Assembly (NCBI GenBank): GCA_965261395.1
Contig: OZ253462.1
Location: 5,504,001 to 5,568,000 of the forward strand
Length of the DNA stretch: 64,000 bases
DNA from: Candidatus Latescibacterota bacterium
GTDB lineage: Bacteria > Latescibacterota > UBA2968 > UBA8231
Reading direction: 5' to 3'
Shown: positions 1 through 34,663 of the stretch, piece after piece
How the letters are laid out: each line of letters starts with the position of its first letter
Position numbering within the stretch: the stretch's first letter is position 1
Position numbers and translations under genes: made by a program
Notes under the pieces: model-generated
Told to the model about the DNA's origin: nothing
The model's input: the letters and a program-made list of their open reading frames with translations, nothing else
The model's database searches: none

Positions 1-581
1 AGCGCCTCTTGCACCGGTGCCGACGTTTCGCCCAGTTCGACCATCTCGACATCGTCGAAGGCAAAATCTTGGGCCTTGGCACCTGAAAAGGCACCCAAGA
101 CCTGCGTACCAGGCAAGACCGAACTCAAGAGGTCGCTACCTACCGCGCTAACATCAGCTATCGCCGATATATCCTGCGGCAAATCCGGCGGTGCCATCGA
201 CTGTAGCATCTCCATCTGCACTTCGGATATCTCGGGACGCTTGGCTAGATCGAAGTTCTTTTCGAGAATTGGTGGAGGAGCGCGGAAGATAATGAGCGAC
301 TCCTTTTTCTCTTCTACGCCAATGCCAAAGAGATAATCATAAACGAAGACGCCAGCGTGGATGGATACCGAGAGGACAAAGGCCACGCTCATACTCAGTC
401 GGCGGCCGGTGGTAGCCGTATATAGGGCGTATATCAGCACCCCGGCACCCGCCAAACCGGCGGCGATCACCACCCACTTGGACAGGATGAAAAGCACGTG
501 AATGAGCAAGGCCGCGCCGACCGCCATATAGGCCGTTTTTTTGCGCTGGGCCTGTACTGCTTTTTTATACTCGTCTACCAC
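1..581 (-). CDS. TonB-like membrane-anchored periplasmic protein, N-terminal part (runs off window edge)
   Basis: Not in the ORF track. Manual translation from GTG 581 with an AGGGGGAAG RBS gives MVDEYKKAVQAQRKKTAYMAVGAALLIHVLF...LSVSIHAGVFVY...RAPPPILEK. It has an SxxxH TM motif and a Pro-containing linker and lies directly downstream of exbD. No TonB C-terminal domain is visible in the window. Confidence 0.6.
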   Translation of the reverse strand, partial: MVDEYKKAVQAQRKKTAYMAVGAALLIHVLFILSKWVVIAAGLAGAGVLIYALYTATTGRRLSMSVAFVLSVSIHAGVFVYDYLFGIGVEEKKESLIIFRAPPPILEKNFDLAKRPEISEVQMEMLQSMAPPDLPQDISAIADVSAVGSDLLSSVLPGTQVLGAFSGAKAQDFAFDDVEMVELGETSAPVQEA

Positions 582-619
582 AGTTCTTCCCCCTCTTGGA
601 AGGGCCTAGAGACCTTCAC

Positions 620-1027
620 TTAGTTGCGCTGCGGTTCCGTGGCGATGACCTGATCGATGACACCCACCTGGCGAGCAATGTCCATGATCTGGACGATTTG
701 CCCGTGCGCGGAGCGCTCGTCTCCCTGGATGATAAGCATCGTGGTGTTATCCAGCAGTTGTCTCTTCGCCTGCAATTCCTCTTTGAGGGTTGCAAAGGTC
801 ACCGACTTGTGGTTCAGTTTCATGTTGCCGTCCTGATCCACGACGATAAAGAGGTTCTCCTTCTCCGGAGCCTGAGCCTCTTCGGACTCGGGCAATTTGA
901 TATCCAAACCCGGAGTGATGGCAAACACTGCGGTCACCATGAAGAAGATGAGTAGCTGAAAGACCACGTCAATCATCGGCGTCAGATCGGGCATGGCCAG
1001 TTCTTTTTTTTCTACTCTCTCAGCCAT
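620..1027 (-). CDS. exbD: ExbD/TolR family biopolymer transporter
   Basis: DLTPMIDVVFQLLIFFMV TM segment with the conserved Asp; C-terminal IIQGD...G.IVQIMD. Confidence 0.92.
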   Translation of the reverse strand: MAERVEKKELAMPDLTPMIDVVFQLLIFFMVTAVFAITPGLDIKLPESEEAQAPEKENLFIVVDQDGNMKLNHKSVTFATLKEELQAKRQLLDNTTMLIIQGDERSAHGQIVQIMDIARQVGVIDQVIATEPQRN

Positions 1028-1058
1028 TTTATCTCATGCCTCCTAAGAAGAGCCGCCC

Positions 1059-1712
1059 TTAGGCAGCCCGAGTGCCTTGCCAGCGGCGCAGTAGGGCGTC
1101 CACAAAACCGTGGCCGTATGCTTCAAACTCAACGGCCTTGCCTGTGGCGCGGTTGCTAAAGTACGTGAAGATGGCGATTGAAGGCACGGCGATCACCAGA
1201 CCGGTAACTGTGGTGATCAGCGCTTCGGAAATACCTGCGGCGACGATCGTCGGCTCACCGAGACCCTTTTCCGCAATACCTTCAAAAGCGTTGATCATAC
1301 CGTTGACCGTACCCAACAGGCCGAGCAACACCACGGATTTAGCCACGAAGTCGATAACGGCCAGATATCGTTCGAGATACCCCAAGGCGGCGCGTTCAAC
1401 CGTGCCGTTCATTTCCACGCGCATCTCCTCCATCGTGCGTTGCTCGCGCGACAAGTGCTCAAAGCGCTCGAGCCCCTCGCCGTACACCTCGCCTTCGAGC
1501 TTGCCGACTTCGGTGCAGTATTCCTTGAGCTGGTCGATGGAAGCACCCGAGTCTATACGCGCGTTGACGTCGTTGGTGATTTCGGCCAATTCGTCCTCGG
1601 AGCGCAGCCGTGCATACGTCCAAATGCGCTCGAGAAAGAACGCAATGGAAAGCATAGACCAGAGCCCCAAAGGCCACATGAAAGGTCCGCCTTCTTGAAA
1701 AAGATCAATCAT
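1059..1712 (-). CDS. exbB: MotA/TolQ/ExbB proton channel family protein
   Basis: GGPFMWPL N-terminus; LLGLLGTVNGMINAF and GISEALITTVTGLVIAVP motifs. Confidence 0.92.
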   Translation of the reverse strand: MIDLFQEGGPFMWPLGLWSMLSIAFFLERIWTYARLRSEDELAEITNDVNARIDSGASIDQLKEYCTEVGKLEGEVYGEGLERFEHLSREQRTMEEMRVEMNGTVERAALGYLERYLAVIDFVAKSVVLLGLLGTVNGMINAFEGIAEKGLGEPTIVAAGISEALITTVTGLVIAVPSIAIFTYFSNRATGKAVEFEAYGHGFVDALLRRWQGTRAA

Positions 1713-1754
1713 TTTCTTTCTCCCTCCTTAAGTTAGGACGCAAAGAAATCAAGG

Positions 1755-4700
1755 TTAAAGGACGCGAGCTTCCTGCATTACCTCTAGCTGCTCTCTGGCA
1801 TAGTCCACCTGCGTCCCGTACTTGGGGTTGTCGCCATAGTTGTCGACAACCTCCTGAAAGATGGCACCGGCTTGGCGGAATTCCTCTTGTTTCATATGGG
1901 CGGCACCGATGTTGACCAGTGAGTTGACAGCTTGGTCGCTCTTGGGGTACTTCTGCCGCACCTCCTCGAAGATCGCCGTTGCCTCATCGAAATTGTCCTC
2001 AGATAAGAGCTTTTCGCCCGTTGCATAAAGATTATAGGCGTCGATCTCAGCCAAATGCCCGAGCAAGGTCTTTGCCTTTTTCGGCAGCGCTCGATCTTGG
2101 GCAATCAGCTTGTCAGCGGGAAAGCGCTCCAAGAAAGTCTGGTAGCTCTCGGTGGCCTTCTCGTACTCCTTGAGGCCGTAATAGTAATCTCCGAGCGTAA
2201 ATTGGCTGCGTGGCCCATATGTACCATTGGGATATTCAGCAACGATTCGCTCAAAGATCGGCACCGCGTCTTCATTGCGCTCGAGATTGATCAAGCACCA
2301 AGCCTTGTTGTAAAGCGCATCGTCCACGTAGCTCGACTTGGGATAGCTCTTAATGATTCGGTCATAATAGACCTTGGCATCCAAGAAGTTCTGGTTTTTG
2401 TCCTCTATGCCGCTCCGGTTAGTCATGTTAAACAGAGCATCGCCAGCGCGGAAAAGCGCCTCAGATGCATAGCGGGACTGCGGATACGTATCGGCTAGGC
2501 TAGCAAAAATATCGCTGGCAGCACGCCATTTACCCATCCGATAATGCGCCCAGGCATCGTAGTAATAGGCATGCACTGCGCGCTCGTCTTCGGGATATTG
2601 GGTGTAATAGGTATTGAACGCCTTTGACATCGCTGGTAGCACTTCGATATTGCCGTTAGCCGATAGCCTGTTATAGGCTACGCCGATCTGGAATTGGGCA
2701 TTTCTGGCCCAAGCAATCTGCGGGTAGTTTTCGATGATGGTGTTATACGTGGCAATTGCTTGGACGAACTGCTCCGACCGGTAGAAGCAGTTGCCTTGGA
2801 CAAAGAGCGCGTTGGCAATGCTCTCGACATTCATGGCTAAGTCGATTAGCTGCTGAGCCGCTTCAATACTCTGCTGGAACTTATCCAATTTGAAATAGGC
2901 ATTGGCCAAGCGAATGAGTAAGCGCTCCCGGTCTTCGCTAGAGGCAGCAGTAGCCAACATCTCCTCGTAGATGCGCACCGCTTCCTCTGGATTGCCCGTC
3001 TTTTCGGCCATTGAGATTAGCTGCAGCCGCGCCGAACGCACCAAGCTTTCGTCTCCTGAAGCAATGACCTCATTCAGTAGCTTCTCCGCCTCGGTGTCGC
3101 TGCCTTCCGCAGAGTACGAGAGCGCCATCGAGAACGTGACCTTTAACTGCATCGCCTTGGGGATCTTGGTGTCCAATAGCCACTTGTAATCGACCAGCGC
3201 GCGGTCGTAACGGCCCGAATAGTGGTAGGCCAATCCACGGCCATAGCGAGTGTCGCGAATGACAATGACATCGCTTTCTGGGTACTCTTCAAGCACCCTG
3301 GTGTAGCCCTCGACTGCGTCGACGTAGTTTTTATTGTTGAGGTCGAGTTGGGCCATCTGGAAATGCGCCCTAGCCTCCAAATCGCGGTCGCCGGTCACGC
3401 CTTCCAGCAATTGATTGAGCAGTGCACGTCCCTCGGTGATGCGATCTTGAGAAATGTAGATGTTGGCCGCCTCAATCAACGCGGCGATGTACGTCTCGCG
3501 GGCATCGCGATCAACCTTGGAAAAAGCAACGATGGCCTCGTCTTTCTGCCCTTCATCTCGGTAGAGAATACCAAGGCCATAGTACGCATCGGCCGTATGC
3601 CGCGTATCCTGATAGCTCTCCGTTATAGCCTTGTAGGCCTCAATGGCCTCCTCAACTTTCTGCTGCTCGTAGCTGAGCCGGGCGATGCGCAACAGGCACA
3701 ACGGCGCTTGGTCTGAGCGGGGGAAGTTGTCCACCGCCTGCGTGTAGCTCGCAATAGCTTGGTCCGCCACGCCGAGTTTTTCGGTAGACCAGCCTGCGCT
3801 GTAGAGCGCTGCGGAGCGCAACCCCGTCTCGCTATCGGGGTAGTCCGCCAGCAGTTTTAGGTAGTCTTCACGGGCAGCGGCGTAGTCTGCGGCAAAGTAC
3901 TTGGCTTCGCCTTTCTGATACTGAGCGTTGGCCGGATAAGGCGTATCCCCATAGAGTTCAATTACCTGGTTGTAAGCGGTCCACGCCTCGTCGAACTTAT
4001 CCCACTCCATGTAGTTGTCGCCGATTCTCATCTGCACCTTGGCCTTGTAAAAGCGTTCCTCGGCGGTCTCCTGAGCGGCGATCAACTCTTGGTAGGCTTC
4101 CTCGTATTGGTCTGTTTTGCGAAAGATCTCAGCGACGCGCAACGAGGAGGTCTCGAAGAGCTGCCGGTAGTTTTCAAAGTCGACATTCTTACCCTCGCGA
4201 AACGAACCGCGCAAGAGTTCAAACATCCGGTCGTAGAGATTGCGCACATCGCGATAGGATTCAATTGCCTCCGCGTCGCGTCCCATCTGGTCATAGGCGT
4301 TGGCCTTCAGATAGAGAGCTTGGGCAATGACCGGACTATTGGGATACTTGTCGAGGACTATCTGAGTCATATCAACGGCTTCGCCGTACTCGCCCTTCTC
4401 ATAGAGCGCACTGGCGATGCGGAACTGGGAATCTGGCGCATAGCGATCTTCCGGATAAGCCGCTAGCATGCCGTTGAGCGTTTCGATGGATTGGTCGTAT
4501 TCTTTGGTGTTAAACTCGCTCCAGCCCGCGTAAAAATACGCCTTGCCGGCTTCCCTCGTCTCGGAGAACAGCTCGACATAGAGCTTGTATTCCTTTGCTG
4601 CTTCGCCGAACTCTTTGGCGAAGAAGCGGGTCTCGGCGACTTGAAACTGCACCAATGACTTGAAATCCTCGGCCACATTCCCTGTGTCGATAACTTGGCG

Positions 4701-5006
4701 ATAGGCTTCCACCGCTTTTTCGTGTTGCCCACTCTTCTTGTAGGCATTGCCTAGCTGATACCAAGCCGCCGCGACTACGGGCAATTCCAGGTCCCTGCCA
4801 AACGTCACCCGTACACTATCGGTGCGCACGGCCTTGCTGGCGAACTTGACGATCTTTGAATACTCGATGATCGCCCCTTCAAACTCGCCAAGGGCGTAGA
4901 GAGATTGTCCGGCGTCAAAACTGGTCTTCAGATTTTGCGGCACCGGTAGAAAAAGGCTAGCTCCTAGCCCCAATCCCAGCGCGATAAGTCCAGCCCAGAC
5001 CGTCAT
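1755..5006 (-). CDS. Large membrane-anchored tetratricopeptide repeat protein (1083 aa)
   Basis: N-terminal hydrophobic anchor; TPRs along the whole length with recurring YP.S/T...A.(F/Y)..G units of the BamD/CpoB type. Confidence 0.9.
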   Translation of the reverse strand: MTVWAGLIALGLGLGASLFLPVPQNLKTSFDAGQSLYALGEFEGAIIEYSKIVKFASKAVRTDSVRVTFGRDLELPVVAAAWYQLGNAYKKSGQHEKAVEAYRQVIDTGNVAEDFKSLVQFQVAETRFFAKEFGEAAKEYKLYVELFSETREAGKAYFYAGWSEFNTKEYDQSIETLNGMLAAYPEDRYAPDSQFRIASALYEKGEYGEAVDMTQIVLDKYPNSPVIAQALYLKANAYDQMGRDAEAIESYRDVRNLYDRMFELLRGSFREGKNVDFENYRQLFETSSLRVAEIFRKTDQYEEAYQELIAAQETAEERFYKAKVQMRIGDNYMEWDKFDEAWTAYNQVIELYGDTPYPANAQYQKGEAKYFAADYAAAREDYLKLLADYPDSETGLRSAALYSAGWSTEKLGVADQAIASYTQAVDNFPRSDQAPLCLLRIARLSYEQQKVEEAIEAYKAITESYQDTRHTADAYYGLGILYRDEGQKDEAIVAFSKVDRDARETYIAALIEAANIYISQDRITEGRALLNQLLEGVTGDRDLEARAHFQMAQLDLNNKNYVDAVEGYTRVLEEYPESDVIVIRDTRYGRGLAYHYSGRYDRALVDYKWLLDTKIPKAMQLKVTFSMALSYSAEGSDTEAEKLLNEVIASGDESLVRSARLQLISMAEKTGNPEEAVRIYEEMLATAASSEDRERLLIRLANAYFKLDKFQQSIEAAQQLIDLAMNVESIANALFVQGNCFYRSEQFVQAIATYNTIIENYPQIAWARNAQFQIGVAYNRLSANGNIEVLPAMSKAFNTYYTQYPEDERAVHAYYYDAWAHYRMGKWRAASDIFASLADTYPQSRYASEALFRAGDALFNMTNRSGIEDKNQNFLDAKVYYDRIIKSYPKSSYVDDALYNKAWCLINLERNEDAVPIFERIVAEYPNGTYGPRSQFTLGDYYYGLKEYEKATESYQTFLERFPADKLIAQDRALPKKAKTLLGHLAEIDAYNLYATGEKLLSEDNFDEATAIFEEVRQKYPKSDQAVNSLVNIGAAHMKQEEFRQAGAIFQEVVDNYGDNPKYGTQVDYAREQLEVMQEARVL

Positions 5007-5063
5007 TTGTGCATCTCCTTGTCTAGGTTCCTAGTTTGGAGTTCATCGGGGTCTTTTTTTGGT

Positions 5064-5999
5064 TTAGAATTCGTATGAAAAGGAAAACCGGTGCGCGCCA
5101 TTGGTCTCGGTCAGATCCAAGCCGATGTCATAGGCATAGTCGAACACCAACTGGTTCCACTGATAGCCCAACCCCGCATTCAATCCCCCACCGGCGTCCT
5201 CAGACAACAAACGACGACCCCCCGCCCGCAACAACAACCCCTCCACCAACTGCGTCTCCCCACCAACAACCAACCCGTGATCCGAGCCCTCCCCCGTCAA
5301 ATCGCGACGCACGTATTGCACCGACACCAACGACTGACTGCTCAGACGATACCCCACCCCCACATGCACGTCCATGGGCAACGTACCCGCATTCGCGTCC
5401 CCTTCCACCTCACCATACGCCACATTCGGCTGATTGATATTCTTCAACAACACCCCCACCTGCGCCCCTTGCATCGGACTCTGCCACATCAAGCCCAAAT
5501 CCAAACCGACATTGCCCGCGCTCTGGTTCGACAGCGGGTCGGGACGACCCTCATCGTCGGGAATCGATCCCACGCTCCAAAACAAATACTTGGCCGACAC
5601 CCCCACCTGCAGCCGACGCTGCACCTGATACGACAGCGACACAAACGCCCCGTTCTCGCTCATCAGCGACGAGCCAATCCGCTCATAGCCCAAGCCCAAG
5701 CCCATCTTGTCGCCCAAAGGCTGCGCATAGGAAACCACATGCTGACCCAAGTCGTCGCCTTCGATGCCCGCATACAAAAGCGACACATTGGTGTAGGCTA
5801 CCTGGCGCTGGGCCACCTGACCCAACCCCGCCGGATTGGCAAACACCGCATCCGAATTGTCGGCCACCGCCACAAAGCTGTTGCCCAACCCCTGGGCCCG
5901 TGCCCCAGAGCCGACATTCTGAATGTTGACAACCCCGTCGCTTGGTTGAGCGACGAACAGCAAGCCGACTAAAACACTAAGCATTTTCAGAGATTTCAT
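5064..5999 (-). CDS. PorV/PorQ/UPF0164 (FadL-like) outer-membrane beta-barrel
   Basis: Signal peptide; GARAQGLGNSFVAVADNSDAVFANPAGL family motif; alternating beta strands; ends HRFSFSYEF. Confidence 0.85.
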   Translation of the reverse strand: MKSLKMLSVLVGLLFVAQPSDGVVNIQNVGSGARAQGLGNSFVAVADNSDAVFANPAGLGQVAQRQVAYTNVSLLYAGIEGDDLGQHVVSYAQPLGDKMGLGLGYERIGSSLMSENGAFVSLSYQVQRRLQVGVSAKYLFWSVGSIPDDEGRPDPLSNQSAGNVGLDLGLMWQSPMQGAQVGVLLKNINQPNVAYGEVEGDANAGTLPMDVHVGVGYRLSSQSLVSVQYVRRDLTGEGSDHGLVVGGETQLVEGLLLRAGGRRLLSEDAGGGLNAGLGYQWNQLVFDYAYDIGLDLTETNGAHRFSFSYEF

Positions 6000-6034
6000 A
6001 ATGCCAACTCCTCCTTGGTGGTCTCGCTTAAAGG

Positions 6035-6781
6035 CTAGTTTGCCTTAGCGACTTTAGGAACGACCGTGCCGTCCTTGTAAATCTTGCCGATATCTCGGAC
6101 GAATTTATAGAAAATATTGGTGGTCTCCACCGGCTCGTTTCGAAAGTCAAATCGCAGGATTACATCAAGCACTTGGACTTCGATATCACTCACGTCTGGG
6201 TGGAGCACGGGAAAAATGACAAAGCCCTCTGCCTCTTGGCCACTGAAGATCTCCTCGTCTTTGAGCATCGTCCGCCGCAGCAAGTCGCGGCGCTCCTGGT
6301 AGCGGGCATATTCGTTGCCCCTGTAGCCTATGGCATAGGCGCGATAATAAGTATCGAGTTGCTCAAAGTTGAGACTCCAATACTCTCGATTATTGCTCGC
6401 TTTGACGACTATTTTGCTTGGATCGATTTTGACTTTGGGGTAGGCGTAATTCTTAATGCTGAGACGGAAGACGGTGAATCGCTGTTTTTCTTCGTCTGTT
6501 CCCCAAAATATCGTATTGCCAAAGGTATAGGGGTTTGTAGACTTAGGACCCGTTTGGGAATTGTTGAAAAACTGGCGATTCAACTCCTCGTCTGTCATCG
6601 GCTTGAGTCGCACTTCAAAGCGATCTTGGGCAAAGGTCAGGGTCCCGTCATCTGCCACACTGATAGACGAGGCCTGTTGTTGGCCAGGCTGCAATGGCCC
6701 CGTGTAATAGCTATATCCACAGCCCAGCAAACCCGAGCCGATGACAACCAAGGTAAATAATACTCGAGTAGAATTCATCAT
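6035..6781 (-). CDS. Hypothetical lipoprotein (paralog of 22906..23664)
   Basis: Lipobox LLGC; shares VADDGT, PMTD.ELNRQF, NPYTFGN, QRFTVFR and NY.YPKV..DP blocks with the paralog. Confidence 0.8.
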   Translation of the reverse strand: MMNSTRVLFTLVVIGSGLLGCGYSYYTGPLQPGQQQASSISVADDGTLTFAQDRFEVRLKPMTDEELNRQFFNNSQTGPKSTNPYTFGNTIFWGTDEEKQRFTVFRLSIKNYAYPKVKIDPSKIVVKASNNREYWSLNFEQLDTYYRAYAIGYRGNEYARYQERRDLLRRTMLKDEEIFSGQEAEGFVIFPVLHPDVSDIEVQVLDVILRFDFRNEPVETTNIFYKFVRDIGKIYKDGTVVPKVAKAN

Positions 6782-7758
6782 TCAGAAACTCCTCCGTGGT
6801 ACAGCTTTGTGTACAAAGAGGCTTTCAAGCGCCCCCAAGACCTCGGCTCCACAGCCATCCCTTGCAAAGTACCTTCTAGCGACATCGGCATCAAGTCGGT
6901 GAAGCGATCGGAAAAGCGATACGAGTTGTGTTGGCCCGAAAGCGACCACTTAGCATCAAAAAGATCCGAATGCACATCAAGATCGTTGAACTCTACGTTA
7001 AAACCAAGGATTTCACCTTCTCGTAAGAGGTGCTCCTCGCTCTGAAAGACCGCATTGATATCAACGCGATCAAAGGGCACGAGCATGACTTCGTAGTTCG
7101 TCACTCCCTTTCCTCCCAAGACACCTGCAAACTCGACCGCCGCCCTAGTATAAGGTCCGTCGGGTAATGCGTACCAAACGGCGGCGGAATAATTGACGAA
7201 AAAATCCTCGTCGGGCGGCGGGCCAGCCAAAACGAAATGGTTAGCTTCAGTTCCGTTGCGCCGCCTATACTCTTCGTCGCTCAACTCGGTGAAATTAGCA
7301 AATTGTCCACCAGAGTGGTCCGCGTCGATAAATAATTCCATCGCATCGTCTCGAAAAATCACCTCAGCACTACCGGCGGGACGATCGATCTGATGTATAT
7401 CATCGCGAACCTGAGCGGCGATATAGAGCCTGTTCTCCGCTTTATTCCACCCTACCATGAGACGGGCAGCAAAATCGTCCGAATCGCTCGCCTCAACTTC
7501 TGGACTAATCAGGTCGTGAAACTGACCCGTTAGTATGGCGTAGGAGTCGCCTACAACCTCCCAATCTGTCAAATCTCCGTCAATGGCGGGGACCAAGTGA
7601 TCGGGAAATTGAAAGGCTCTGTAGGCCACTCCTTCGGGGTAATGCCCCAGAGCCGGTTTAGCTAAACCTACTGTTATCTGTAGCGCCAGCCCTAAAAAAA
7701 ACAACCACAACCAACACCTCAGCCGCCGCCTTCTTATTTGTTTTTTGCTATCTTTCAA
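6778..7758 (-). CDS. Secreted DOMON/CBM9-like protein with C-terminal SWGRLK motif
   Basis: PAIDGDLTDW, LYIAAQVRDD, DAMELFIDAD and GFNVEFND are CBM9/DOMON-like; the start codon is uncertain. Confidence 0.7.
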   Translation of the reverse strand: MKDSKKQIRRRRLRCWLWLFFLGLALQITVGLAKPALGHYPEGVAYRAFQFPDHLVPAIDGDLTDWEVVGDSYAILTGQFHDLISPEVEASDSDDFAARLMVGWNKAENRLYIAAQVRDDIHQIDRPAGSAEVIFRDDAMELFIDADHSGGQFANFTELSDEEYRRRNGTEANHFVLAGPPPDEDFFVNYSAAVWYALPDGPYTRAAVEFAGVLGGKGVTNYEVMLVPFDRVDINAVFQSEEHLLREGEILGFNVEFNDLDVHSDLFDAKWSLSGQHNSYRFSDRFTDLMPMSLEGTLQGMAVEPRSWGRLKASLYTKLYHGGVSE

Positions 7759-7772
7759 TTGTATGGGGCTGT

Positions 7773-7801
7773 ATGATAATCAATGGCCTAAGACGTGTCA
7801 A
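7773..7801 (-). promoter_or_regulatory. sigma70-type promoter for the exbBD/PorV-like operon
   Basis: Minus strand TTGACA-N17-TATCAT. Confidence 0.7.
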
Positions 7802-7997
7802 GATATACTTAGAGATAGCCGTGGAAACAATGGATCTATAACGAATAAAATAGATAAATAACAATAGGTTAGGTCTATTTAATCCCCATGTAAATCGCTG
7901 CAAATCCCCTCATCCACGCCTCGACTTGACTGATTATCTGAGCGATTGACGACAAAGGCATGTCTTTTTTCGTAATCGTCGGCCCGATCTGGCTATC

Positions 7998-8026
7998 TTG
8001 AGATGTTCACCAATATACTATATAAT
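7998..8026 (+). promoter_or_regulatory. sigma70-type promoter for the divergent operon
   Basis: TTGAGA-N17-TATAAT in an AT-rich intergenic region. Confidence 0.7.
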
Positions 8027-8161
8027 ATAGCGCAATGTCGACCAAGATACGCGATTAGTCCAGTCGATACGGACTGGGTTGGAGCGCGTAACCGCCGTCG
8101 GTGCCCTTGTTTTGCTCGTCGCAGGCAGCCAAGAGCTTACATTCTTGCGCGGAGGTGTTTG

Positions 8162-10816: not shown

Positions 10817-10870
10817 CCAAAATGCGCGACTGCTTACAGGATTTCCCTTCATCGCCACCATTCTAACGCC

Positions 10871-12967: not shown

Positions 12968-12974
12968 GAATACC

Positions 12975-14603
<1,629 letters not shown>

Positions 14604-14607
14604 AACT

Positions 14608-17432: not shown

Positions 17433-17433
17433 T

Positions 17434-21148: not shown

Positions 21149-21151
21149 TTT

Positions 21152-22813: not shown

Positions 22814-22905
22814 AACGTTCTCACCTGTGTACAAAACTGCGCGGTACCGCTTGCCCAGCGGCACCGCGCAGCTAGTTGAATTTGGCTTGTGAACCTTGTG
22901 CTGCA

Positions 22906-23664
22906 CTATTGGCTGGTCGCCACCTTGCGCCCGTCGGGATAGATGCGGCCAATCTCGCGCTCAAAGTGCATTTCGACGTCCGTACCTTCTATGGGATCGC
23001 CCTTGTAATCGAAACGCACCACCACATCGGGAATGTGGACGGTTAGATTCTCCACATCCGGGGCCAGCGGCTTGAAGACAACATACCCTTCGTTCTCTTG
23101 GGCGCTGAACACATCCTCATCGGGAAACATCGTGCGCCGCAAGATGCTGTCGCGCTCTTTCAAGACCTCCAAGGCATTGCCGGACATCCCAGGGTCGTTG
23201 CCGCCGCTGCCGCTACCGACGTAGCGGCTATAATATATTTTGAGCTGTTCACGCCTCAGCGCGTAGTACTTGCGCCCGTTAGAGGTGGTTATATTGACCT
23301 TTTTAGGGTCGAGATAGACCTTGGGGTATTCGTAATTAGAAACGTATATGCGAAAGACGGTGAAGCGCTGCGGGGTGTCCCCAGTGCGAAAGTACGTCGA
23401 GTTGCCAAACGTGTAGGGGTTGCGCGAGTCGGGCCCCTCGTTGGAGTACGCGCTGAATTGGCGATTCAACTCCGCGTCGGTCATCGGCCGCAGGCTGATC
23501 TCAAGGCGCGCCTGTGTATAGGACACGGTGCCATCATCGGCCACTGTCTTGTTAGTCCCTTGCTCGGCCTCGCTCAGCGGCTTGAGATCTTCAGCATAAT
23601 AGCGATAGGAGCATCCCGGAAAAATCAGCCCGACCAGAAGCAGCGGTGTGAAACATTTCAGCAT
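22906..23664 (-). CDS. Hypothetical lipoprotein (paralog of 6035..6781)
   Basis: AGGAGG RBS; lipobox FPGC; conserved blocks shared with the paralog. Confidence 0.8.
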   Translation of the reverse strand: MLKCFTPLLLVGLIFPGCSYRYYAEDLKPLSEAEQGTNKTVADDGTVSYTQARLEISLRPMTDAELNRQFSAYSNEGPDSRNPYTFGNSTYFRTGDTPQRFTVFRIYVSNYEYPKVYLDPKKVNITTSNGRKYYALRREQLKIYYSRYVGSGSGGNDPGMSGNALEVLKERDSILRRTMFPDEDVFSAQENEGYVVFKPLAPDVENLTVHIPDVVVRFDYKGDPIEGTDVEMHFEREIGRIYPDGRKVATSQ

Positions 23665-23674
23665 GGGAAACCTC

Positions 23675-26425: not shown

Positions 26426-26471
26426 AAATACCCTCCCTTGATGTCGAATTCCGGTCCGAACTGCTGCTTTA

Positions 26472-29400
26472 TCAATAAGCCACGTGAACGAGGCGCGTCA
26501 ATTTGCTATCTTGATCGTCGGCTTCTACCTTGATCTGACAGAGATAGATCCCCGGCGGCACGATGTGCCCACCCAGATCCCGACCGTCCCACACAAACGC
26601 CTGCGTCCCTACCTTGCCACCAGTCGCCAAGCTCTGCCCTTGGCCTACCAAGCGTCCTCCCAAATCGTACAATGCAACTTCCAACGGACGCTCCTCCTGC
26701 ACCTTCAACAAAACAAAATGCACCAAGAGCTCGTCGTTGATCCCGTCGCCATTGGGCGTAAAGACGGGTGCCAGCTCTACGTCTTGGATCAAAGACCCCC
26801 GCAGAGCCATCAAGCTGACCTGCGCCGTCGAAGAATCCACCAACTCGGTCGCATCCTTATCGGCGGTGTCCACCCGTTGGAATACGCCCTCATCCGAATC
26901 CGAAGACCGCACAAACGAGGCGAATTCAACGCCCTCGCGGAAGCTCTGCGACGCAAACTGCACCTCAATGAGGGCGTGCTGGCCAGCCGGCAGATCAGCA
27001 TTGAGCGAAAAGGGAAAACGCACCCAGATCGAATCCTCACCGGTCGCCATGCGTTCCAACACCTCGCCATCTATCTCGCGCAAAACCCCGTCGTCGCCCG
27101 GGGCAAAGGCACGGTCAAACTGCGTGGTCGTCGCCGAGGTCAGCACTTCCTCCGGGTTGAGGAGCGAGGACGTCTGGGCGATGGCGACCTGTCCCAAGCG
27201 CACGCCGGTCAAGCGCGCAGCACGCGACGCGACGACCAGCACCTCGTTAAAGCCGTCGCGCACCGTCGCATCGGTCGGATCGGGCGCGGCAGCGCGGATG
27301 AAATAAGAAAACTGCTGCGGAGCGAGCGGATCGATATTGCGCGGCGGGATGTAGTCCGAGGTCTGCACATCCAAGTCGGTCGGCACGCGCGCGGCTCCCT
27401 CTTCGGTGAGAAGCGCCAACTCACCGGCCAGTTCTAGCGCCAGCGGTGGGGCCAGCTCAATGCGCAAACTGCGGATGCGTGCCGTCTTGAAGGGATCCTC
27501 GGAGGAAATATTGACCCGCACCTGAATGAACTTGCGCGGGTTGGGCGAAGTGATCGTGGCCTCGTTGACGCCATTGGTGGGCAGATAGCTTTCGCTCCAC
27601 TCGCTCCAACCGACGAAGGCCAGTTCGCCGTCTTTGTCAAAGCTCGACCGCGGCGCCCGGCGCAGTTTCTTGCCGTCCTCGTCCACGAGGCCGTCGCCAT
27701 CGTTGTCAATCAGATCAATCGGATCCTCGTCGGTGACCCCGTCGCCATCGTCGTCCGTGCGCGAGGCGTGTTGCTGGCTGGCGGGCAGGGTCTGCCAGAT
27801 CTCCCAGGCCGTCCACTTCAAGGCGATATCGTCGTAGACCTCTTTCGCCACTTCCTCGCGCTCTTCGCTGCCGGCGATGGTCACGACTTGATAGTACGTG
27901 AAGTTGCTGTCGGTCTGGTCGGAGGTGCGAGTCTGTATCTGCAAGCGGACATCGGGGTGGAGATCCAGGGGCTCGATCCGCTCGACGGCTTGGCCGGTGA
28001 ACGGATCGGTCTCGCGGACGACTACATCGCCTTCCCAAGCAATGCGCGGCAGGGTTTTGCGAATGAAGTTGCCACGTGAATCAGTCAGCGTAATCGGCGG
28101 TGAGTAGGCCCACACGCTGACCGGATAGCCTTCGCCGTAGAGCTGAATCTCGCCCAAGGTCGCCAGCGCGCCGTAGCGACCGGATACCTGCCCGGTGACG
28201 TCGATATCGCGGATTTGCAGAAAGCGGATCTTGCGCCGGGGAAAAGTCTCGCGGAAAATGCGCACTACCGGCGTGTGGTTATCGATGTGCTCCTCACTGA
28301 TGATGTTGTCCCACTTGAGAGATTCTTCGAGCAGGGGGAAGTCTTCGCGGTCGTTCATGCTCACGGGTTTGAGCAGCGTGCCGTCAGAGACTAAGATATC
28401 CGGCCCCAAGAAGGCCCCTTGGTGACTCTGGTTGATGCGCTTGTTGACTACCGAGACATTATCGACCCAAAACACGGCCCCTAAGTCGTACCAGGCCGTG
28501 CCCTTGAGGTAAATCGGCGACCACGTATTGGCCTGCCACTCCGAGTCGTAGAGCCCGTCGGTGGCCAAGTTGGGCGCGCCCAAACCGCCGTTTTCAAACG
28601 AAGCCCCGCCACGCCTTTCTGGCTGCAGCGCGTAGTTGTCGCCCTTAGCCCAGACCTGAACCTCGGCGATACGAGGAACTTCTTTGCTGTAATAAAGAAT
28701 CGGACCGCGCTTCCCCTCGGGTAAGGTTTGGTATTTTTCGCCGGCGGTCTGATTGGCATCGTCCTGGAGTTCGACGAGTAGGCCACCGGCAGTTTGGCGC
28801 TGATAGACGATCGCACCGCGCTGCTCTTGGGGCAATGCTTCATAGGCAAGACGCGCCTCTTCGTCAGCACCTAAGAAGGAATCACGCCAGAGATCCGAAT
28901 CCGTAATTTTGATGCGGACGTAATGGATGAAGGCACCGCTAATATCGGGCAGGCCATCCAAATCCCAGTCGGCCCGATCCAGCGGCAAGAGCGGGAAGGT
29001 CATCTGCGCATAGCGACCTTCGGTTCCGGGCATCGAAACCAGCGTTACTTCACCGGTCTCACCCCCTCCCCCACCTGCACAGCGGGTCTCGCCGGCGTAG
29101 CCCGAGCCTTCATCGCGTACACACTGGGCCAATTTGCCGGCGACGAAGCCAGTAGATACTTGCCCTATGAGGGAAAACTTGAGGTTGTTGCCCAAGGGAA
29201 AGGGAAAACGCTCGCCCATCGAGGCGAAAAGCGCGAAGGACTTGACCGGCTCGCCGAGGAACTCGTCTTCGAACTGACCAGCGGGAAAGATGATCGTCAG
29301 GCTATCGGCAAAGACCAACCGTCCCAAATCAACTTCGATTTCCCAGTTGCGCAGGCCGTCGAGATTGAAGTCCCCAGGGCGGGTCAAACGACTCGCAAAA

Positions 29401-29807
29401 TCGGCCGGCGTGTCCGGCTCCCAGAAGGTACTCAAGTCGCCATCGAGGACATTATTGGCCAAGGCATCGTTGGATTTGGCCGTCGCGCCCCCGGAGATTA
29501 GATCACCACCAGCACGAACCAAATCAGGATAGGTGAAATCGACAGCCGTCGGGGCCGCGTTGATATTGCGGCGAAAAAACGTCGGCCGCAGCCCATCGGC
29601 TTCAACTCGGAAAATATCCGCATCGCCGATTGACACGTTCAATTGGGAGACCAAGTCGTTCTGATAACTCCAGTTCTCCCAGTGCGAAGCCCGATCCACG
29701 CGGATCGAGTTGCCAAAAATCCTATAGGCATCCGTTTGAGCCAGACAGAAACTAGGCAGAGATAGTACGGCGAAGAGAGCCGTCTTCCACTTTAGCAGCC
29801 GTTTCAT
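26472..29807 (-). CDS. Large secreted protein with discoidin-like domains and C-terminal FlgD-Ig/T9SS type B-like domain
   Basis: Signal peptide; LDGDLSTFW...VDLGR and TDGLYDSEW...YDLG; VFTPNGDGIND...WDGRD...PPGIY...VAY. Confidence 0.85.
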   Translation of the reverse strand: MKRLLKWKTALFAVLSLPSFCLAQTDAYRIFGNSIRVDRASHWENWSYQNDLVSQLNVSIGDADIFRVEADGLRPTFFRRNINAAPTAVDFTYPDLVRAGGDLISGGATAKSNDALANNVLDGDLSTFWEPDTPADFASRLTRPGDFNLDGLRNWEIEVDLGRLVFADSLTIIFPAGQFEDEFLGEPVKSFALFASMGERFPFPLGNNLKFSLIGQVSTGFVAGKLAQCVRDEGSGYAGETRCAGGGGGETGEVTLVSMPGTEGRYAQMTFPLLPLDRADWDLDGLPDISGAFIHYVRIKITDSDLWRDSFLGADEEARLAYEALPQEQRGAIVYQRQTAGGLLVELQDDANQTAGEKYQTLPEGKRGPILYYSKEVPRIAEVQVWAKGDNYALQPERRGGASFENGGLGAPNLATDGLYDSEWQANTWSPIYLKGTAWYDLGAVFWVDNVSVVNKRINQSHQGAFLGPDILVSDGTLLKPVSMNDREDFPLLEESLKWDNIISEEHIDNHTPVVRIFRETFPRRKIRFLQIRDIDVTGQVSGRYGALATLGEIQLYGEGYPVSVWAYSPPITLTDSRGNFIRKTLPRIAWEGDVVVRETDPFTGQAVERIEPLDLHPDVRLQIQTRTSDQTDSNFTYYQVVTIAGSEEREEVAKEVYDDIALKWTAWEIWQTLPASQQHASRTDDDGDGVTDEDPIDLIDNDGDGLVDEDGKKLRRAPRSSFDKDGELAFVGWSEWSESYLPTNGVNEATITSPNPRKFIQVRVNISSEDPFKTARIRSLRIELAPPLALELAGELALLTEEGAARVPTDLDVQTSDYIPPRNIDPLAPQQFSYFIRAAAPDPTDATVRDGFNEVLVVASRAARLTGVRLGQVAIAQTSSLLNPEEVLTSATTTQFDRAFAPGDDGVLREIDGEVLERMATGEDSIWVRFPFSLNADLPAGQHALIEVQFASQSFREGVEFASFVRSSDSDEGVFQRVDTADKDATELVDSSTAQVSLMALRGSLIQDVELAPVFTPNGDGINDELLVHFVLLKVQEERPLEVALYDLGGRLVGQGQSLATGGKVGTQAFVWDGRDLGGHIVPPGIYLCQIKVEADDQDSKLTRLVHVAY

Positions 29808-29841
29808 AGCATTTCCTTTCTTTTCGCGTTTCTAGCTAAGG

Positions 29842-32325
29842 CTAATACGCTACGGAAACGATGCGCGTCTGGGCCTTGCCCGCATGATCGGCTTCGGTCG
29901 AAATGCGCAACATGTATAGGCCCGGAGGCACTATCTGTCCAGCATCGTCGCGACCGTCCCACTGTTGCGAATACCCTCCCGACGACAAACGGAGCTCAAT
30001 GAAGTGCAGGCACCGACCGTTTAAATCGAATATCTCCAGATACACCGGCTTCGGCGTTAGCAGCCGCTGGACGTCAAAAGTCACGACTACTTCGTCGTTG
30101 ACGTCGTCGCCATTAGGCGTAAAAGGATTGGGCGCGACCTTGAAATTGGTCACGAGGTTCTCGCTCTGCGCTGAAATATCGGCGATCACCGCTAGGGAAT
30201 TACGATCTGAGAGCTGGTCCGTCGCGACGAAATCAACCACGTCATTGTCCTCTACTCGCTGTGGCAAGAAAATGGCCAGCGTATCGAGCGCACTCTCGCT
30301 ACCCCCGAGCGCCAAAATGCCGCTCCTGGTAAAGTGTCGCTCTGTTTCTGCACCTAAGGTGTCTAAGAAGACATTGGCAGCGAAGTTGGTGCGGAAGTCG
30401 ATGACCCGACCCTGAAAGCGGACTTTTACCAATGCGTTGCGAACTTGGCCATCCTCGGCTGGGCTGATGGTCGGAAAACCAACGACGAACTGATCGTCGG
30501 CAACGTACAATTCTCGAAACTGACCTTCGCCGATTTTGCCCTCGCCGTCCATTCTTTCCAAGTTCAGGAACTTCCCGTCGCCTAGATCCACTTCCACCCC
30601 CTTAATGGCCTCTGTGCGCGCCGGAGTAAAAACCTGCAAGCGATTAAAGCCGTTGTTCTCGGCCCCTAACCCAGCGTTGAGGACCAGTACAAAGGAGGTG
30701 TCGCGGCCAGCGATCACATCCACGGCCGGAGCAATCTCGCCGAAGACCTGATCCGTGATCTGTGGGGCGGAGTATTCAAAGCGCAAGTTGCTAATAATTG
30801 TGGCCGCCTCAGGCTCCTTGCTCAGAAACTCAACCTCTATCTGAATGAAGGGCCGACCACTTGGCGCGTTGATTAGCTCGCCGTTATTGACCAACTGGAC
30901 ACCACTCCAGAACTCAAGCTCGGGTTCGACGTGACGCCGCTCATTGCCCGGCAGGGCCTTGTACTCGTCGCGGGTAAGCCGCACGCGTTGGCGATCCTCT
31001 GGTAGGGCGGCGCTGAAGAGTTCGCGTGCATCTAGGTTGAGTTCGGGATCGTTCAGGTCCACCCCTTGGCCGAAGGTCCTAGAGCCGAGCCGTTGATCAA
31101 TGATGATCGCTCCTTCCTCTTTCCACTCCACCTCGCGCTCAAAATCGTTGACGCGAAAAAGCACATCCGGCTCGGGATTGACGCCTGTCTGTACGCGCAC
31201 GATAGCGCGCGACCTGTTGGGATCGCCAATTTTTCGCTCGTCCCAGAAGATCCGCCCCAAGGTCGCCGGGGGCAGCGGTAGTGCATTGGAAGTATAAACC
31301 GCTTCAGGAAAAAAACCGTCGGCAAAAAACTCCATTTCAGCCAAGTCGTAATCCAGCGGAGTCTGAAAATCAAAGCGCGCATAGCGCATGTAGGCCTGCG
31401 GATTAAAGGCCACGGCAATGGTGTCTTCCACATTGACCGGTACGCTTGCCTCGGAAACGAAGGTTGGAAAAGTCGAGGCTATCTTAGCGAACGTAGGGAA
31501 CGCCAACTGCCCAATTTTTGGATCGTCGAGACTAAGACCGGCGATTACCTTCTCAGTCCCAGGCAGACCCCTATAAAAGGTATAAGCGGAAACACGCGCG
31601 GGCTCTTCAAGACTGGGATAGAGGCGGAACAAGCTAATTGGAAAGTAGCGTCCCAAGTCAATATAGAGGGACCATATCTGCTTGACGTCCTGCCCGACTC
31701 GGTCGATGCGCTCGAAATGGGTCAGTGGATCGCCATCGAAAACGCGCCCTAGCCCCTCTTGGAGTCGCTGGCCGGTCAAAGTCCTTTCAAAAATGCCGAG
31801 AGTCGTGAGGTTGAGCCCCTTGTTGTACTTGTCGCCGCCGGGAGGGCGGGGAAAAGATTCGGCCACGTTGATCATGGCCTCAATCTCGGCAATGCCAGCC
31901 CGGCGCAATAGCTGGACGGCCTCTAGGCTACGCGGAAAGGAACTCCAGCGAGGGACCAAGACCGTGCCCGCCTTTACAATCGCACCATCGTCGAGTTCGA
32001 TCTCAGTCGGTGCTACTACATCTGCTCTAGTTACATTGAGTGAGAAGGCAAAGAGGGTAGAATCGGTCGCCGCATCCACTTCGTCGGCGGTTAATGCGAG
32101 AGGAATTTCGGGAACGGGCACTACACGCGTTGGCAAGATGGGCCCAATGCCATTCTCATAGCTTTCAAAGTCTATTACTTCAATGAAGCGACTCTCTGAA
32201 AGCGGCCCCTGCTTGGCGTCGACCCAAGTTGTGTTGCCCGGAATGGCGAACAGGCGCAACTCCGCAGCAGCATGTACTACCCAACCTGCCAAAACCAGCG
32301 CGGCGACACAAATCCCAATTCTCAT
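29842..32325 (-). CDS. Large secreted protein with C-terminal FlgD-Ig/T9SS type B-like domain
   Basis: Signal peptide; VFDGDPLT...IDLGRYF; PNPFTPNGDDVND...WDGRD...PPGLY...VAY. Confidence 0.85.
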   Translation of the reverse strand: MRIGICVAALVLAGWVVHAAAELRLFAIPGNTTWVDAKQGPLSESRFIEVIDFESYENGIGPILPTRVVPVPEIPLALTADEVDAATDSTLFAFSLNVTRADVVAPTEIELDDGAIVKAGTVLVPRWSSFPRSLEAVQLLRRAGIAEIEAMINVAESFPRPPGGDKYNKGLNLTTLGIFERTLTGQRLQEGLGRVFDGDPLTHFERIDRVGQDVKQIWSLYIDLGRYFPISLFRLYPSLEEPARVSAYTFYRGLPGTEKVIAGLSLDDPKIGQLAFPTFAKIASTFPTFVSEASVPVNVEDTIAVAFNPQAYMRYARFDFQTPLDYDLAEMEFFADGFFPEAVYTSNALPLPPATLGRIFWDERKIGDPNRSRAIVRVQTGVNPEPDVLFRVNDFEREVEWKEEGAIIIDQRLGSRTFGQGVDLNDPELNLDARELFSAALPEDRQRVRLTRDEYKALPGNERRHVEPELEFWSGVQLVNNGELINAPSGRPFIQIEVEFLSKEPEAATIISNLRFEYSAPQITDQVFGEIAPAVDVIAGRDTSFVLVLNAGLGAENNGFNRLQVFTPARTEAIKGVEVDLGDGKFLNLERMDGEGKIGEGQFRELYVADDQFVVGFPTISPAEDGQVRNALVKVRFQGRVIDFRTNFAANVFLDTLGAETERHFTRSGILALGGSESALDTLAIFLPQRVEDNDVVDFVATDQLSDRNSLAVIADISAQSENLVTNFKVAPNPFTPNGDDVNDEVVVTFDVQRLLTPKPVYLEIFDLNGRCLHFIELRLSSGGYSQQWDGRDDAGQIVPPGLYMLRISTEADHAGKAQTRIVSVAY

Positions 32326-32438
32326 TCCGATTCTCCCCGGTAGAATTTGCGCTGCCCGGATCTCAGCATGGGCAAACTAGGAGCGAGGTATTATAACGCG
32401 AGGAGGATAGCTACCTAAACTATGCGATAGCCACAAGA

Positions 32439-32483
32439 TAATTTTAAGGAGAGGAGGAAGCATTCCCCCTCTCCTTAAAATTA
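32439..32483. terminator. Inverted-repeat hairpin downstream of the 33402..32506 gene
   Basis: TAATTTTAAGGAGAGG...CCTCTCCTTAAAATTA perfect 16-bp arms. Confidence 0.65.
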
Positions 32484-32505
32484 AGAAAACAGCAGGATGC
32501 TACTG

Positions 32506-33402
32506 TTACTCAAACGCGGCCTTGATGCGGCCCCAAGAGTCTTCTTCGACTGCCGTTTCACCAGTTCCGACCAAGCGACCATCGGCGAAGCGCTCGGCAT
32601 AGCGCCAAGTCGCGGCCTGACCAGTCAAGGTGTGAAAAGCGCGGTAGTTGCTCGGCTCGATATCCATGTCTGGAATCGAAATTTGGAAGCCAATGATCTT
32701 GCCGTCGAAGAGAGGCGACGGAACGCTGTCATCCGGGCTGTTCCAGATCAGGTCGTCGAAAGGCGTGACGAAGAATTCAAGGGCTGTAACCGTCGGTCCG
32801 TCGCCGACCGAACCGCCACCGCCATCGGCGTAGGGCAGCGAGTTGACCCACTCGGTGCCTTTGCCCAGATAGCCAACATGACGGCCGTCAGGAGTATCGC
32901 CGATAGCCACATACTGCTGAGCCGTGCGGTTGTTGTTCAGGTCCTTCTCTTCGTCGGTCCAGTTCTCATCGGCCGAACCAGTATAATCGCCACCGGTGTG
33001 GTCGCCATCAAGCATGAACTCAATGGAGTCTTGCCTCCACAAGCTACCCAAGTCACCGCCAGCGTATTCGTTGATGTACGTATTGTCGATGCGCTCCATA
33101 CCCAGCCAGATGGTGCCGGCATTGCCGTTCCAACCCAGCCAAATGCGATAATCTAGGTCCGCCGGATCGTACTGGGCACCCTCGCCCACGGTCGGATCCG
33201 CAAAGAAATCAGTAGCGATCAGCGAAGGGTCACCAATTACATCTTCCCAGTCGGCTATGCTGGCATCGCGCAGATCAATATCAGCCAGATCAGCTTCGGG
33301 GAGCTCAAAGAGCAGGTAAACCTGTTCGCCAATATGCGCACTGGCACCGCTCGTCAGGCCCAATATCAGGCCCATAGCGACAAGGCCATATAGACGTTTC
33401 AT
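32506..33402 (-). CDS. Secreted DOMON/CBM9-like protein with C-terminal SWGRIK motif (paralog of 6778..7758)
   Basis: AAGGAG RBS; signal peptide ending ASA; LGWN, DSIEFMLDGDHTGG, PFD and G.IIGF blocks shared with the paralog. Confidence 0.75.
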   Translation of the reverse strand: MKRLYGLVAMGLILGLTSGASAHIGEQVYLLFELPEADLADIDLRDASIADWEDVIGDPSLIATDFFADPTVGEGAQYDPADLDYRIWLGWNGNAGTIWLGMERIDNTYINEYAGGDLGSLWRQDSIEFMLDGDHTGGDYTGSADENWTDEEKDLNNNRTAQQYVAIGDTPDGRHVGYLGKGTEWVNSLPYADGGGGSVGDGPTVTALEFFVTPFDDLIWNSPDDSVPSPLFDGKIIGFQISIPDMDIEPSNYRAFHTLTGQAATWRYAERFADGRLVGTGETAVEEDSWGRIKAAFE

Positions 33403-34643: not shown

Positions 34644-34663
34644 GGTATTGCTCCGCGATAAGC

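Follow-up and report, generated by a model that had tools for sequence, protein, structure and literature searches.

Motors of the ExbB/ExbD type, in which the two subunits combine at 5:2, energise the import of nutrients in the Ton system, keep the envelope intact in Tol, and drive gliding in Agl-Glt and type IX secretion in GldLM. We analyzed a 64,000-nucleotide stretch of DNA (the window; G000:C1:5504001-5568000) from the single-contig genome (6.55 Mb, 95.3% complete, 8.0% contamination) of an uncultured sponge-associated Latescibacterota bacterium, with the RNA runs that contain this stretch being labelled as sponge metagenome. At the start of the window lies an operon that joins ExbB and ExbD to a 1083-aa TPR protein, a small outer-membrane barrel, and a membrane-anchored transducer with a DUF4159 head. 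Our best explanation, to which we assign a probability of roughly 0.55, is that this operon is an accessory, proton-driven energiser of the Ton/Tol type for surface cassettes that the genome carries in many copies. Each such cassette would comprise a giant barrel (here the 916-aa BIG916), lectin-like proteins with C-terminal tails for the T9SS (type IX secretion system), a lipoprotein, and a peptidyl-prolyl isomerase (PPIase).

Foremost among the published analogues are transducers with an SHLS-type anchor and a vWA head, which are encoded downstream of TPR-tolQ-tolR-tolR genes, have no known function, and are listed in PMC12204202 (Mol Biol Evol 2025) for PVC, Proteobacteria, Bacteroidetes, and Rhodothermaeota. 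The Agl-Glt core, as its parts are outlined in PMC3169522 (PLoS Genet 2011), combines a TolQ/R-type motor, the TonB-like GltG, large exported TPR proteins (GltD has 1191 aa), and outer-membrane barrels. In Fibrobacter succinogenes, the cluster FSU_2396-2403 (OmpA, two TPR, ExbB, two ExbD, and TonB genes) is reported to rise in expression on cellulose along with enzymes that the T9SS displays, and its proposed role is to drive the uptake of their products (Sci Rep 2019, PMC6851124). Moreover, a TonB-dependent transporter is reported to be required for the secretion of a protease (PMC6434023), which shows that Ton-type energy can serve protein export.

A motor operon with a DUF4159-headed transducer

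Seven genes, all on the minus strand, fill window positions 1-7758 in the order p326, p248, small barrel, TPR, ExbB, ExbD, and DUF4159 gene, and the gaps between them are at most 57 bp (Table 1). The full transducer is 391-453 aa long, depending on the start, and consists of a hydrophobic membrane helix with a Ser-x3-His pattern (LSVSIHAGVF), an APPPIL linker, and a C-terminus that matches DUF4159 (PF13709, 90.5 bits). Neither a TonB_C domain (PF03544) nor any NCBIfam match was detected in the full protein. The first-pass annotation had called the product of window frame 3-581, which is only the start of this gene, a TonB-like protein; this is correct for the anchor with its TonB-type SxxxH helix, but wrong for the head. 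Among 20 aligned full-length orthologues, 19 have an [S/A/T]xxxH helix before the APPPIL segment. Moreover, a profile of the transducer family matches PDB entry 4i66, an uncharacterised DUF4159 protein from Haliangium, with an E-value of 8.6e-16. In a full-text search of the literature, the name DUF4159 turned up in the Pfam database paper only.

The TPR protein gave 286.6 bits over 10 stretches with the YbgF/CpoB model TIGR02795 and 111 bits with the PorW/SprE model, the latter being under the cut-off of 250. As for the small barrel, it matches the PorV/PorQ family NF033709 with 77.1 bits (cut-off 90), the PorP/SprF family TIGR03519 over its full length with 49.7 bits (cut-off 90.55), and the PorV model with 15.9 bits (cut-off 250), and so falls under every curated T9SS barrel cut-off. 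Its structural model (pLDDT 86.5) has 14 strands and an N-terminal hatch, and superposes on PorV (8gl6_F) with a Z-score of 31.9 (rmsd 2.7, 278 residues), which is tied with FadL and CymD (Z-score of 32.2). Since the fold fits FadL and PorV equally, it cannot decide between them, and we place the barrel in the FadL/PorV superfamily and no further. All 120 matches listed in a homologue search with the barrel protein are at least 90% identical to it. We also noticed that many draft assemblies of relatives break within the barrel gene.

Contigs from RNA libraries provide weak support for co-expression of the operon. In three of four studies, all junctions outside the barrel gene are bridged, that between barrel and TPR included, and one contig of 6,230 nt spans window positions 1-5446. 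The contigs break within the barrel gene, probably because of a second copy that is 93% identical, and these breaks are not taken as a transcript end. In two studies, the contigs stop at 7746, near a promoter-like site (7773-7801) that is itself weak evidence. Scans of the sequence for promoters and terminators gave sites no more numerous than in shuffled sequence.

Conserved gene order and paralogous modules

Several families of the phylum share the gene order of the operon. Around relatives of the barrel, nine of 20 loci have the arrangement barrel-TPR-ExbB-(ExbD)-DUF4159, and these belong to families f1, f6, f11, and f13. Retrieval with the transducer alignment added 80 loci, all from metagenome-assembled genomes of this lineage, whose names vary between Latescibacterota, Gemmatimonadota, and others. 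In 74 of these the DUF4159 frame was called, and nine of the 74 are short of upstream DNA. A TPR homologue lies upstream, in the order TPR-ExbB-ExbD-DUF4159, in 62 of the other 65, bearing out the synteny suggested in the first-pass annotation; the three exceptions are paralogues of the DUF4159-only kind. Immediately upstream of TPR, 39 loci (families f1, f6, f11, and f13; gaps below 100 bp) have the small barrel, three a BIG916 homologue, and five some other gene, and in 15 the contig ends at this point. Where BIG916 takes this place directly 5' of TPR (loci L157, L161, and L166), genes for tailed proteins stand before it. In genome G078, a single strand carries the series tailed protein, p326, p248, barrel, TPR, ExbB, ExbD, and DUF4159. 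In line with the first-pass annotation, the motor operon is in several lineages physically tied to cassettes with giant barrels and proteins tailed by a C-terminal domain (CTD). Most loci in these counts come from close relatives and are not independent.

The window's own genome has six MotA/ExbB loci, one of which is a canonical TPR-ExbB-ExbD-ExbD-TonB_C system. At five loci, a DUF4159 membrane protein is paired with a lipoprotein of the p248 family. Four of the five also have a TPR protein of 1040-1095 aa, BIG-type or PorV-like barrels, and a tailed protein, and three (the window, C1:5.297-5.318 Mb, and C1:1.389-1.394 Mb) have an ExbB/ExbD pair of their own. In genomes G009 and G002, BLAST found no motor or TPR genes near the paralogous DUF4159 loci. 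The p248/p280 family numbers 13 members in the window's genome, which adjoin barrels or lie in loci with DUF4159 membrane proteins, and p248 and p280 themselves are paralogues with 46% sequence identity. A PDB sequence search with p248 returned nothing credible, and 16 of its homologues gave chance-level Pfam matches only. For p326, there are 29 matches in the genome, with the p326 and p327 families ranging from 20 to 29 (here and below, such copy numbers are BLASTP matches in the window's genome, own gene included).

Two more divergent MotA/ExbB-like genes were seen at L037 and L038 (G000:C1:5850000-5868000 and 4110000-4128000). One of them is clustered with genes for FHA, VWA, Ser/Thr kinase, and PP2C proteins, and the other lies between genes for family-less proteins of 420 and 139 aa, the 139-aa partner being without a membrane Asp.

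Distribution over the phylum and natural loss

Across 151 Latescibacterota genomes, that of the window included, the DUF4159 transducer family (E ≤ 1e-10) co-occurs with the BIG916 family (E ≤ 1e-30) and not with SprA. The transducer family is present in 98 genomes and BIG916 in 90, with both in 90, the transducer alone in eight, BIG916 alone in none, and neither in 53. SprA is found in 146 of the 151, among them 52 of the 53 genomes that have no transducer relative. By family, both are present in all 63 genomes of f1, throughout f5, f6, f7, f11, f12, f13, and f14, and in the same five of the six f9 genomes. Family f3 has neither (0/19 for each), and BIG916 is likewise absent from f2 (transducer 1/30, BIG916 0/30), f8 (1/5 and 0/5), and f4 (2/2, both weak, and 0/2). 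In f10, the matches to both are weak (13/13 and 9/13). Strong orthologues of the two share families f1, f6, f9, f11, f12, and f13.

Candidate tails are a different matter. Taken as a first look and unscored, their counts reach 51-194 per genome in f10, 40-130 in f8, and 82-133 in genus g5 of f1, all without a window-type operon, compared with 49-302 in f1 and 22-80 in f9, f11, and f13 where such an operon is present. Therefore, the expectation of the first-pass annotation that the operon would co-vary with the number of FlgD-type tails did not hold, since genomes without the operon are as rich in them (f10, and 100 in G002) as many that have it.

More conspicuously, two congeners differ in the operon itself. 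In G009 (L072), it is flanked by two copies of the barrel, whereas G002 (L074, 96% complete) has one barrel copy and TPR-ExbB-ExbD-DUF4159 are gone. A search of G002 for a TPR1083 homologue (E ≤ 1e-20) or a window-type transducer found neither, and the genome retains SprA and about 100 tail candidates. G002 thus looks like a natural knock-out, brought about by a deletion through recombination between the barrel repeats.

Surface cassette and other genes of the window

The genes flagged in the first-pass annotation over the first 33 kb (barrel, TPR, exbB, exbD, the tailed proteins, the 916-aa protein, the lipoproteins, the PPIase, and the GT-C glycosyltransferase) are all present where it had put them, and Table 1 gives the features of the operon and the cassette.

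Table 1. Features of the motor operon and the surface cassette, in window positions
Feature	Position	Strand	Remarks
5' part of force-transducer gene	1..581	-	Full gene at genome C1:5503220-5504581; DUF4159 head beyond window start
ExbD/TolR-type stator subunit, 135 aa	620..1027	-	PF02472, 98.9 bits; membrane-helix Asp (TPMIDVVF)
ExbB/TolQ-type proton-channel subunit, 217 aa	1059..1712	-	PF01618, 80.7 bits
1083-aa TPR protein	1755..5006	-	N-terminal hydrophobic anchor; about ten CpoB/YbgF-like TPR units
311-aa outer-membrane barrel, FadL/PorV fold	5064..5999	-	14 strands and N-terminal hatch
p248 lipoprotein	6035..6781	-	Lipobox LLGC
p326, first operon gene	6778..7758	-	Weak CBM9-like match
Promoter-like site just upstream of p326	7773..7801	-	11/12 consensus positions; weak evidence
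937-aa secreted protein, FlgD_ig/CHU_C-type C-terminal tail	8003..10816	+	Divergent from operon here; co-directional with it in G078
Cassette PPIase, 584 aa	21152..22906	-	31 BLASTP matches in genome
p280 lipoprotein, paralogue of p248	22906..23748	-	Adjoins 916-aa gene
BIG916, 916-aa outer-membrane protein	23675..26425	-	Signal peptide; C-terminal ...AG[FY] end; 46 BLASTP matches
1111-aa secreted protein with C-terminal tail	26472..29807	-	
827-aa secreted protein with C-terminal tail	29842..32325	-	
p327, paralogue of p326	32506..33489	-	

The secreted proteins of 937, 1111, and 827 aa have FTPNGDGxND tails, with FlgD_ig/CHU_C matches near the Pfam cut-offs, and their families have 146-161 BLASTP matches each. 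Genome-wide, all 150 tail candidates that were scored, of 255 from the first look, match FlgD_ig, which puts the number of such tails at 150 or more. The tailed proteins of the cassettes are best read as ordinary T9SS cargo. The sister cassette that matches best lies at C1:3301600-3314752. Within this one genome, little can be read from how close the tail genes and the 916-aa gene lie to the motor, as this is barely above chance: three tails in 33.4 kb have a Poisson probability of 0.04-0.14, and a 916-aa paralogue falls within 25 kb of any given point with a probability of 0.3.

Elsewhere in the genome, at G000:C1:5836644-5838560 (plus strand), a 638-aa frame with a FlgD_ig tail has a stretch with 62% identity to the operon's ExbD (residues 30-133). 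A secreted protein with a tail would here contain a periplasmic domain of the ExbD type. A genus g5 genome whose BIG916 relatives are otherwise distant has, at G130:C119:8385-11120, a copy with 81% identity to the window BIG916, which may be contamination or transfer.

Between the 937-aa protein and the cassette, window positions 10871-21148 hold a gene for a GT-C (PMT_2) plus TPR protein, two FG-GAP/UnbV_ASPIC genes, two TPR genes, and one GDSL-type gene. The GT-C/TPR protein has 46 BLASTP matches and the FG-GAP/ASPIC proteins 50-52. With the GT-C, FG-GAP, and one TPR family at 46-52 matches, this part appears to be another repeated gene set outside the motor operon. Further on (33702-37078) are two family-less secreted proteins of 313 and 267 aa and a second PMT_2 glycosyltransferase of 536 aa, each of them single-copy.

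Type IX secretion genes elsewhere in the genome

The first-pass annotation saw no porK/L/M/N, sprA, or porU in the window, and this stands, although the genome does have SprA, PorU, and PorV outside it. SprA is encoded at C1:2065172-2070727 by a frame of 2164 aa (594.9 bits, cut-off 200). PorU lies at C1:5607643-5610810, about 40 kb past the window end (618 bits, cut-off 420), and adjoins a PorV-family barrel of 233 bits (NF033709). Near this pair (L040, G000:C1:5598000-5617999), there are also a homologue of the 'T9SS-dependent M6-like inactivated metalloprotease' with 288 bits, which is under its cut-off (600), and a protein of 1036 aa that has a TolB-type propeller. In searches of this genome that had no positive control, GldL, GldM, and GldN gave no match, and GldK only partial matches of the FGE-sulfatase type (best 70 bits against a cut-off of 350). 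Likewise with no positive control, GldL and GldM were over their cut-offs in none of the 151 genomes. A crude topology filter for an adjacent pair resembling GldL-GldM returned only a TRAP transporter and a cassette pair. The whole-genome search for the PorP/SprF family gave no match, although hmmscan gives the window barrel 49.7 bits. Such a first look can therefore overlook weakly matching members, and every negative family search is weakened accordingly; for this reason and the lack of a control, the Gld proteins are worded here as not detected. A literature search gave nothing relevant on Latescibacteria with T9SS or ExbB.

What the operon may energise

We infer the task of the module (uptake, assembly, or movement), its stoichiometry, the coupling through the His-bearing helix, and the partner of the head. 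ExbB and ExbD would form the usual 5:2 stator and act on the His-bearing helix of the transducer, whose DUF4159 head, together with the long TPR scaffold, would carry the work over the periplasm to partners in the outer membrane. In the window, the partner may be the small barrel with its lipoprotein, and in some lineages it may be the BIG916-type barrel encoded in the same position. The module would thereby power uptake or operation at the cassette complexes, in the way in which many TonB-dependent transporters draw on a single Ton system.

Several observations weigh against this explanation. Within the genome, SxxxH occurs in only three of ten DUF4159 proteins, and the transducer model, made from an eight-sequence alignment, has a mean pLDDT of 41.8 and is too poor for fold assignment; used in Foldseek all the same, it gave 4i66 as the sole significant match. 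RNA libraries may contain DNA, and a contig over two genes is no proof of a single transcript. The barrel is separable from the motor: a second copy, 93.5% identical, is found at G000:C1:4258944-4259870 (L089:13945-14871), and in genera g5 and g18, as in family f9, no TPR gene adjoins the barrel. The surroundings of that second copy are housekeeping genes (amino-acid kinase and APS kinase), with no motor or cassette genes nearby. The co-occurrence of transducer and BIG916 comes down to a small number of independent contrasts (the f2/f3/f4 group, f8, and, within f1, g5/g18), and related genomes do not count independently. Despite its operon loss, G002 retains four BIG916 genes, and giant barrels are therefore not strictly dependent on this operon. 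BIG916 itself matched no Pfam or other named family and no PDB sequence (five of its homologues, too, had no Pfam match), and its nearest named cluster in an Atlas search, the TonB-dependent-receptor-like DUF6029 (0.89), is only a lead.

The first-pass annotation had put the ExbBD/TPR module in place of PorLM/PorKN as a machine for CTD proteins, and in this form the operon would be the missing power unit of the T9SS, with ExbBD and the DUF4159 protein standing for GldLM, the TPR protein for PorK/N or PorW, and the barrel acting as a PorV-like tail receptor. In its favour, GldL/M/N are without a match, and GldK has only a partial one, in a single-contig genome of 95% completeness, GldL and GldM are over cut-off in none of the 151 genomes of which 146 have SprA, and the topology filter gave no adjacent pair like GldL-GldM. 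The barrel also belongs to the PorV/PorQ/PorP superfamily, the TPR protein has its sub-threshold PorW/SprE match, and tailed proteins occur in or beside the modules at four loci of the genome and at L128, L157, and L166. However, too many SprA-bearing genomes are without the module for it to be a general T9SS motor: 52 of the 53 genomes without a transducer relative keep SprA, as does G002, which lost the operon, and tail counts do not follow it. Moreover, a better PorV stands beside PorU (the window barrel ranks just 8th of the 12 PorV-family matches in the genome), a stronger PorW-like candidate is found at C1:4838550, and the Gld negatives come from a pipeline that was run without a positive control and missed the 49.7-bit PorP-family match. 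Part of what the first-pass annotation had itself listed as speaking against its proposal was in fact found, namely a transducer in 98 genomes and SprA in 146, with no co-variation with CTD proteins. We consider a T9SS power unit quite improbable. An envelope-maintenance or division system like Tol-Pal, in which a giant CpoB-like TPR protein and the DUF4159 protein take the place of CpoB and TolA, seems unlikely as well. It agrees with the best NCBIfam matches of the motor genes, TolQ (76 bits) and TolR (67 bits), where the equivalog models score under their cut-offs, with the many YbgF/CpoB-type stretches of the TPR protein, and with full-length TolB not being found in the window's own genus. 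Yet G009 and genera g3, g11, and g17 of f1 have both the operon and full-length TolB, f10 has TolB without a window-type orthologue (weak DUF4159 paralogues only), and f2 and f3 have neither, such that the two distributions are not complementary. A patchy distribution and the natural loss in G002 also poorly fit a core envelope function, and the supplement of PMC12204202 reports a canonical tol-pal locus from a Latescibacteria genome.

With about the same low odds, the motor could move or position tailed adhesins, anchored by a PorP-like barrel, as a surface conveyor for attachment or gliding in the manner of Agl-Glt/Nfs. The Agl-Glt core has the same parts list in the sections of PMC3169522 that describe it, the small barrel has a full-length, sub-threshold PorP/SprF match, and the tails bear the FTPNGDGxND motif of CHU_C-type domains. 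Against this, the likeness of the TPR and DUF4159 proteins to Glt proteins is drawn from that parts list, the transducer has no GltG-type FHA or TonB_C domain, and the operon has no cytoplasmic track or MglA-type partner; in the authors' own statement, the Agl-Glt core complex alone does not drive motility (PMC3169522). We give the least credence to there being no single machine at all, with p326-p248-barrel being the end of a surface cassette that happens to adjoin a TPR-ExbBD-DUF4159 operon to which it is unrelated. Here, the p248-barrel pair does occur without motor genes in f9, G002, g5, and g18, and a stand-alone copy of the barrel exists. However, the barrel lies directly and closely 5' of TPR in 39 loci from four families, genes of the p248 family are found with the DUF4159 genes at each of the five paralogous loci, and RNA-library contigs span the barrel-TPR junction in three studies.

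Returning to an accessory energiser of giant-barrel cassettes, a bolder extension of it can be envisaged, which we hold to be doubtful but less so than any of these alternatives. DUF4159-headed, His-anchored proteins with giant TPR partners might then be a third class of proton-motive-force transducers beside TonB and TolA, energising a new family of giant barrels with T9SS-displayed lectin-like proteins, and thus a TonB-independent counterpart of polysaccharide utilisation loci in Latescibacterota. Since SprA is nearly always present in the phylum and PorL/M was not detected in any of 151 genomes, ExbBD-type modules or another unrecognised motor might also energise the handling of type IX cargo outside Bacteroidota. 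In any case, the motor is coupled here to an unstudied head domain, DUF4159, and the module tracks an unnamed giant-barrel family, with amplification to 46 copies in this sponge symbiont. Should the link be borne out, we would know what powers a large, undescribed surface apparatus of a phylum that is widespread and uncultured. Furthermore, as the phylum keeps SprA, PorU, and PorV and yet its known T9SS motor was not detected in searches without a positive control, the question of how this system is powered is sharpened.

Comparison with known systems

Like Ton, the module has an ExbB/ExbD pair, a single His-bearing (SxxxH) helix, a Pro-containing linker, and one motor locus for many candidate clients. 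Unlike Ton, it has a DUF4159 head in place of TonB_C and a 1083-aa TPR protein as an obligatory neighbour, its candidate clients (the small barrel and BIG916) are not recognisable as TonB-dependent transporters, and the canonical TPR-ExbB-ExbD-ExbD-TonB_C locus of the genome is separate from it. PorP/SprF-like anchors are encoded next to type B cargo. In this regard, the small barrel resembles PorV, PorQ, and PorP in its 14-stranded, FadL-like build, its conserved N-terminal GARAxGMGGAF...NPAGL, and its place next to CHU_C/FlgD-tailed proteins, but it scores under all their cut-offs, the FadL fold fits it equally, and the genome has the better PorV beside PorU. With Tol-Pal and CpoB, the likeness is in the TolQ/TolR motor matches and the CpoB/YbgF-type TPR units, whereas TolA domain III, TolB, and Pal are all lacking from the operon. 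Beyond the operon, full-length TolB showed no complementary pattern over the phylum, and no search for Pal was made.

Among the cited systems, Agl-Glt/Nfs of Myxococcus likewise has a motor, a TonB-like membrane coupler, an exported TPR protein of more than 1000 aa, and barrels, and is modular and reused for surface tasks, as PMC3169522 presents it. By comparison of parts lists, it differs in that GltG has FHA and TonB_C domains and in its cytoplasmic gliding partners, which are not in the operon here. The Fibrobacter cluster, again from the FCB group, has TPR genes beside an ExbB/ExbD/TonB operon and is co-regulated with a T9SS-displayed surface complex, although, by the gene content given in PMC6851124, its transducer is a true TonB-family protein and DUF4159 does not figure in it. 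The closest published analogue of the DUF4159 transducer is the SHLS group as characterised in PMC12204202, which shares the SHLS-type His helix, a disordered linker, a globular head that is not of the TonB kind, and TPR and motor genes upstream. Where its text and supplement treat these heads, they name a vWA fold and not DUF4159/PF13709, and two ExbD-type genes accompany them there, compared with the single ExbD here.

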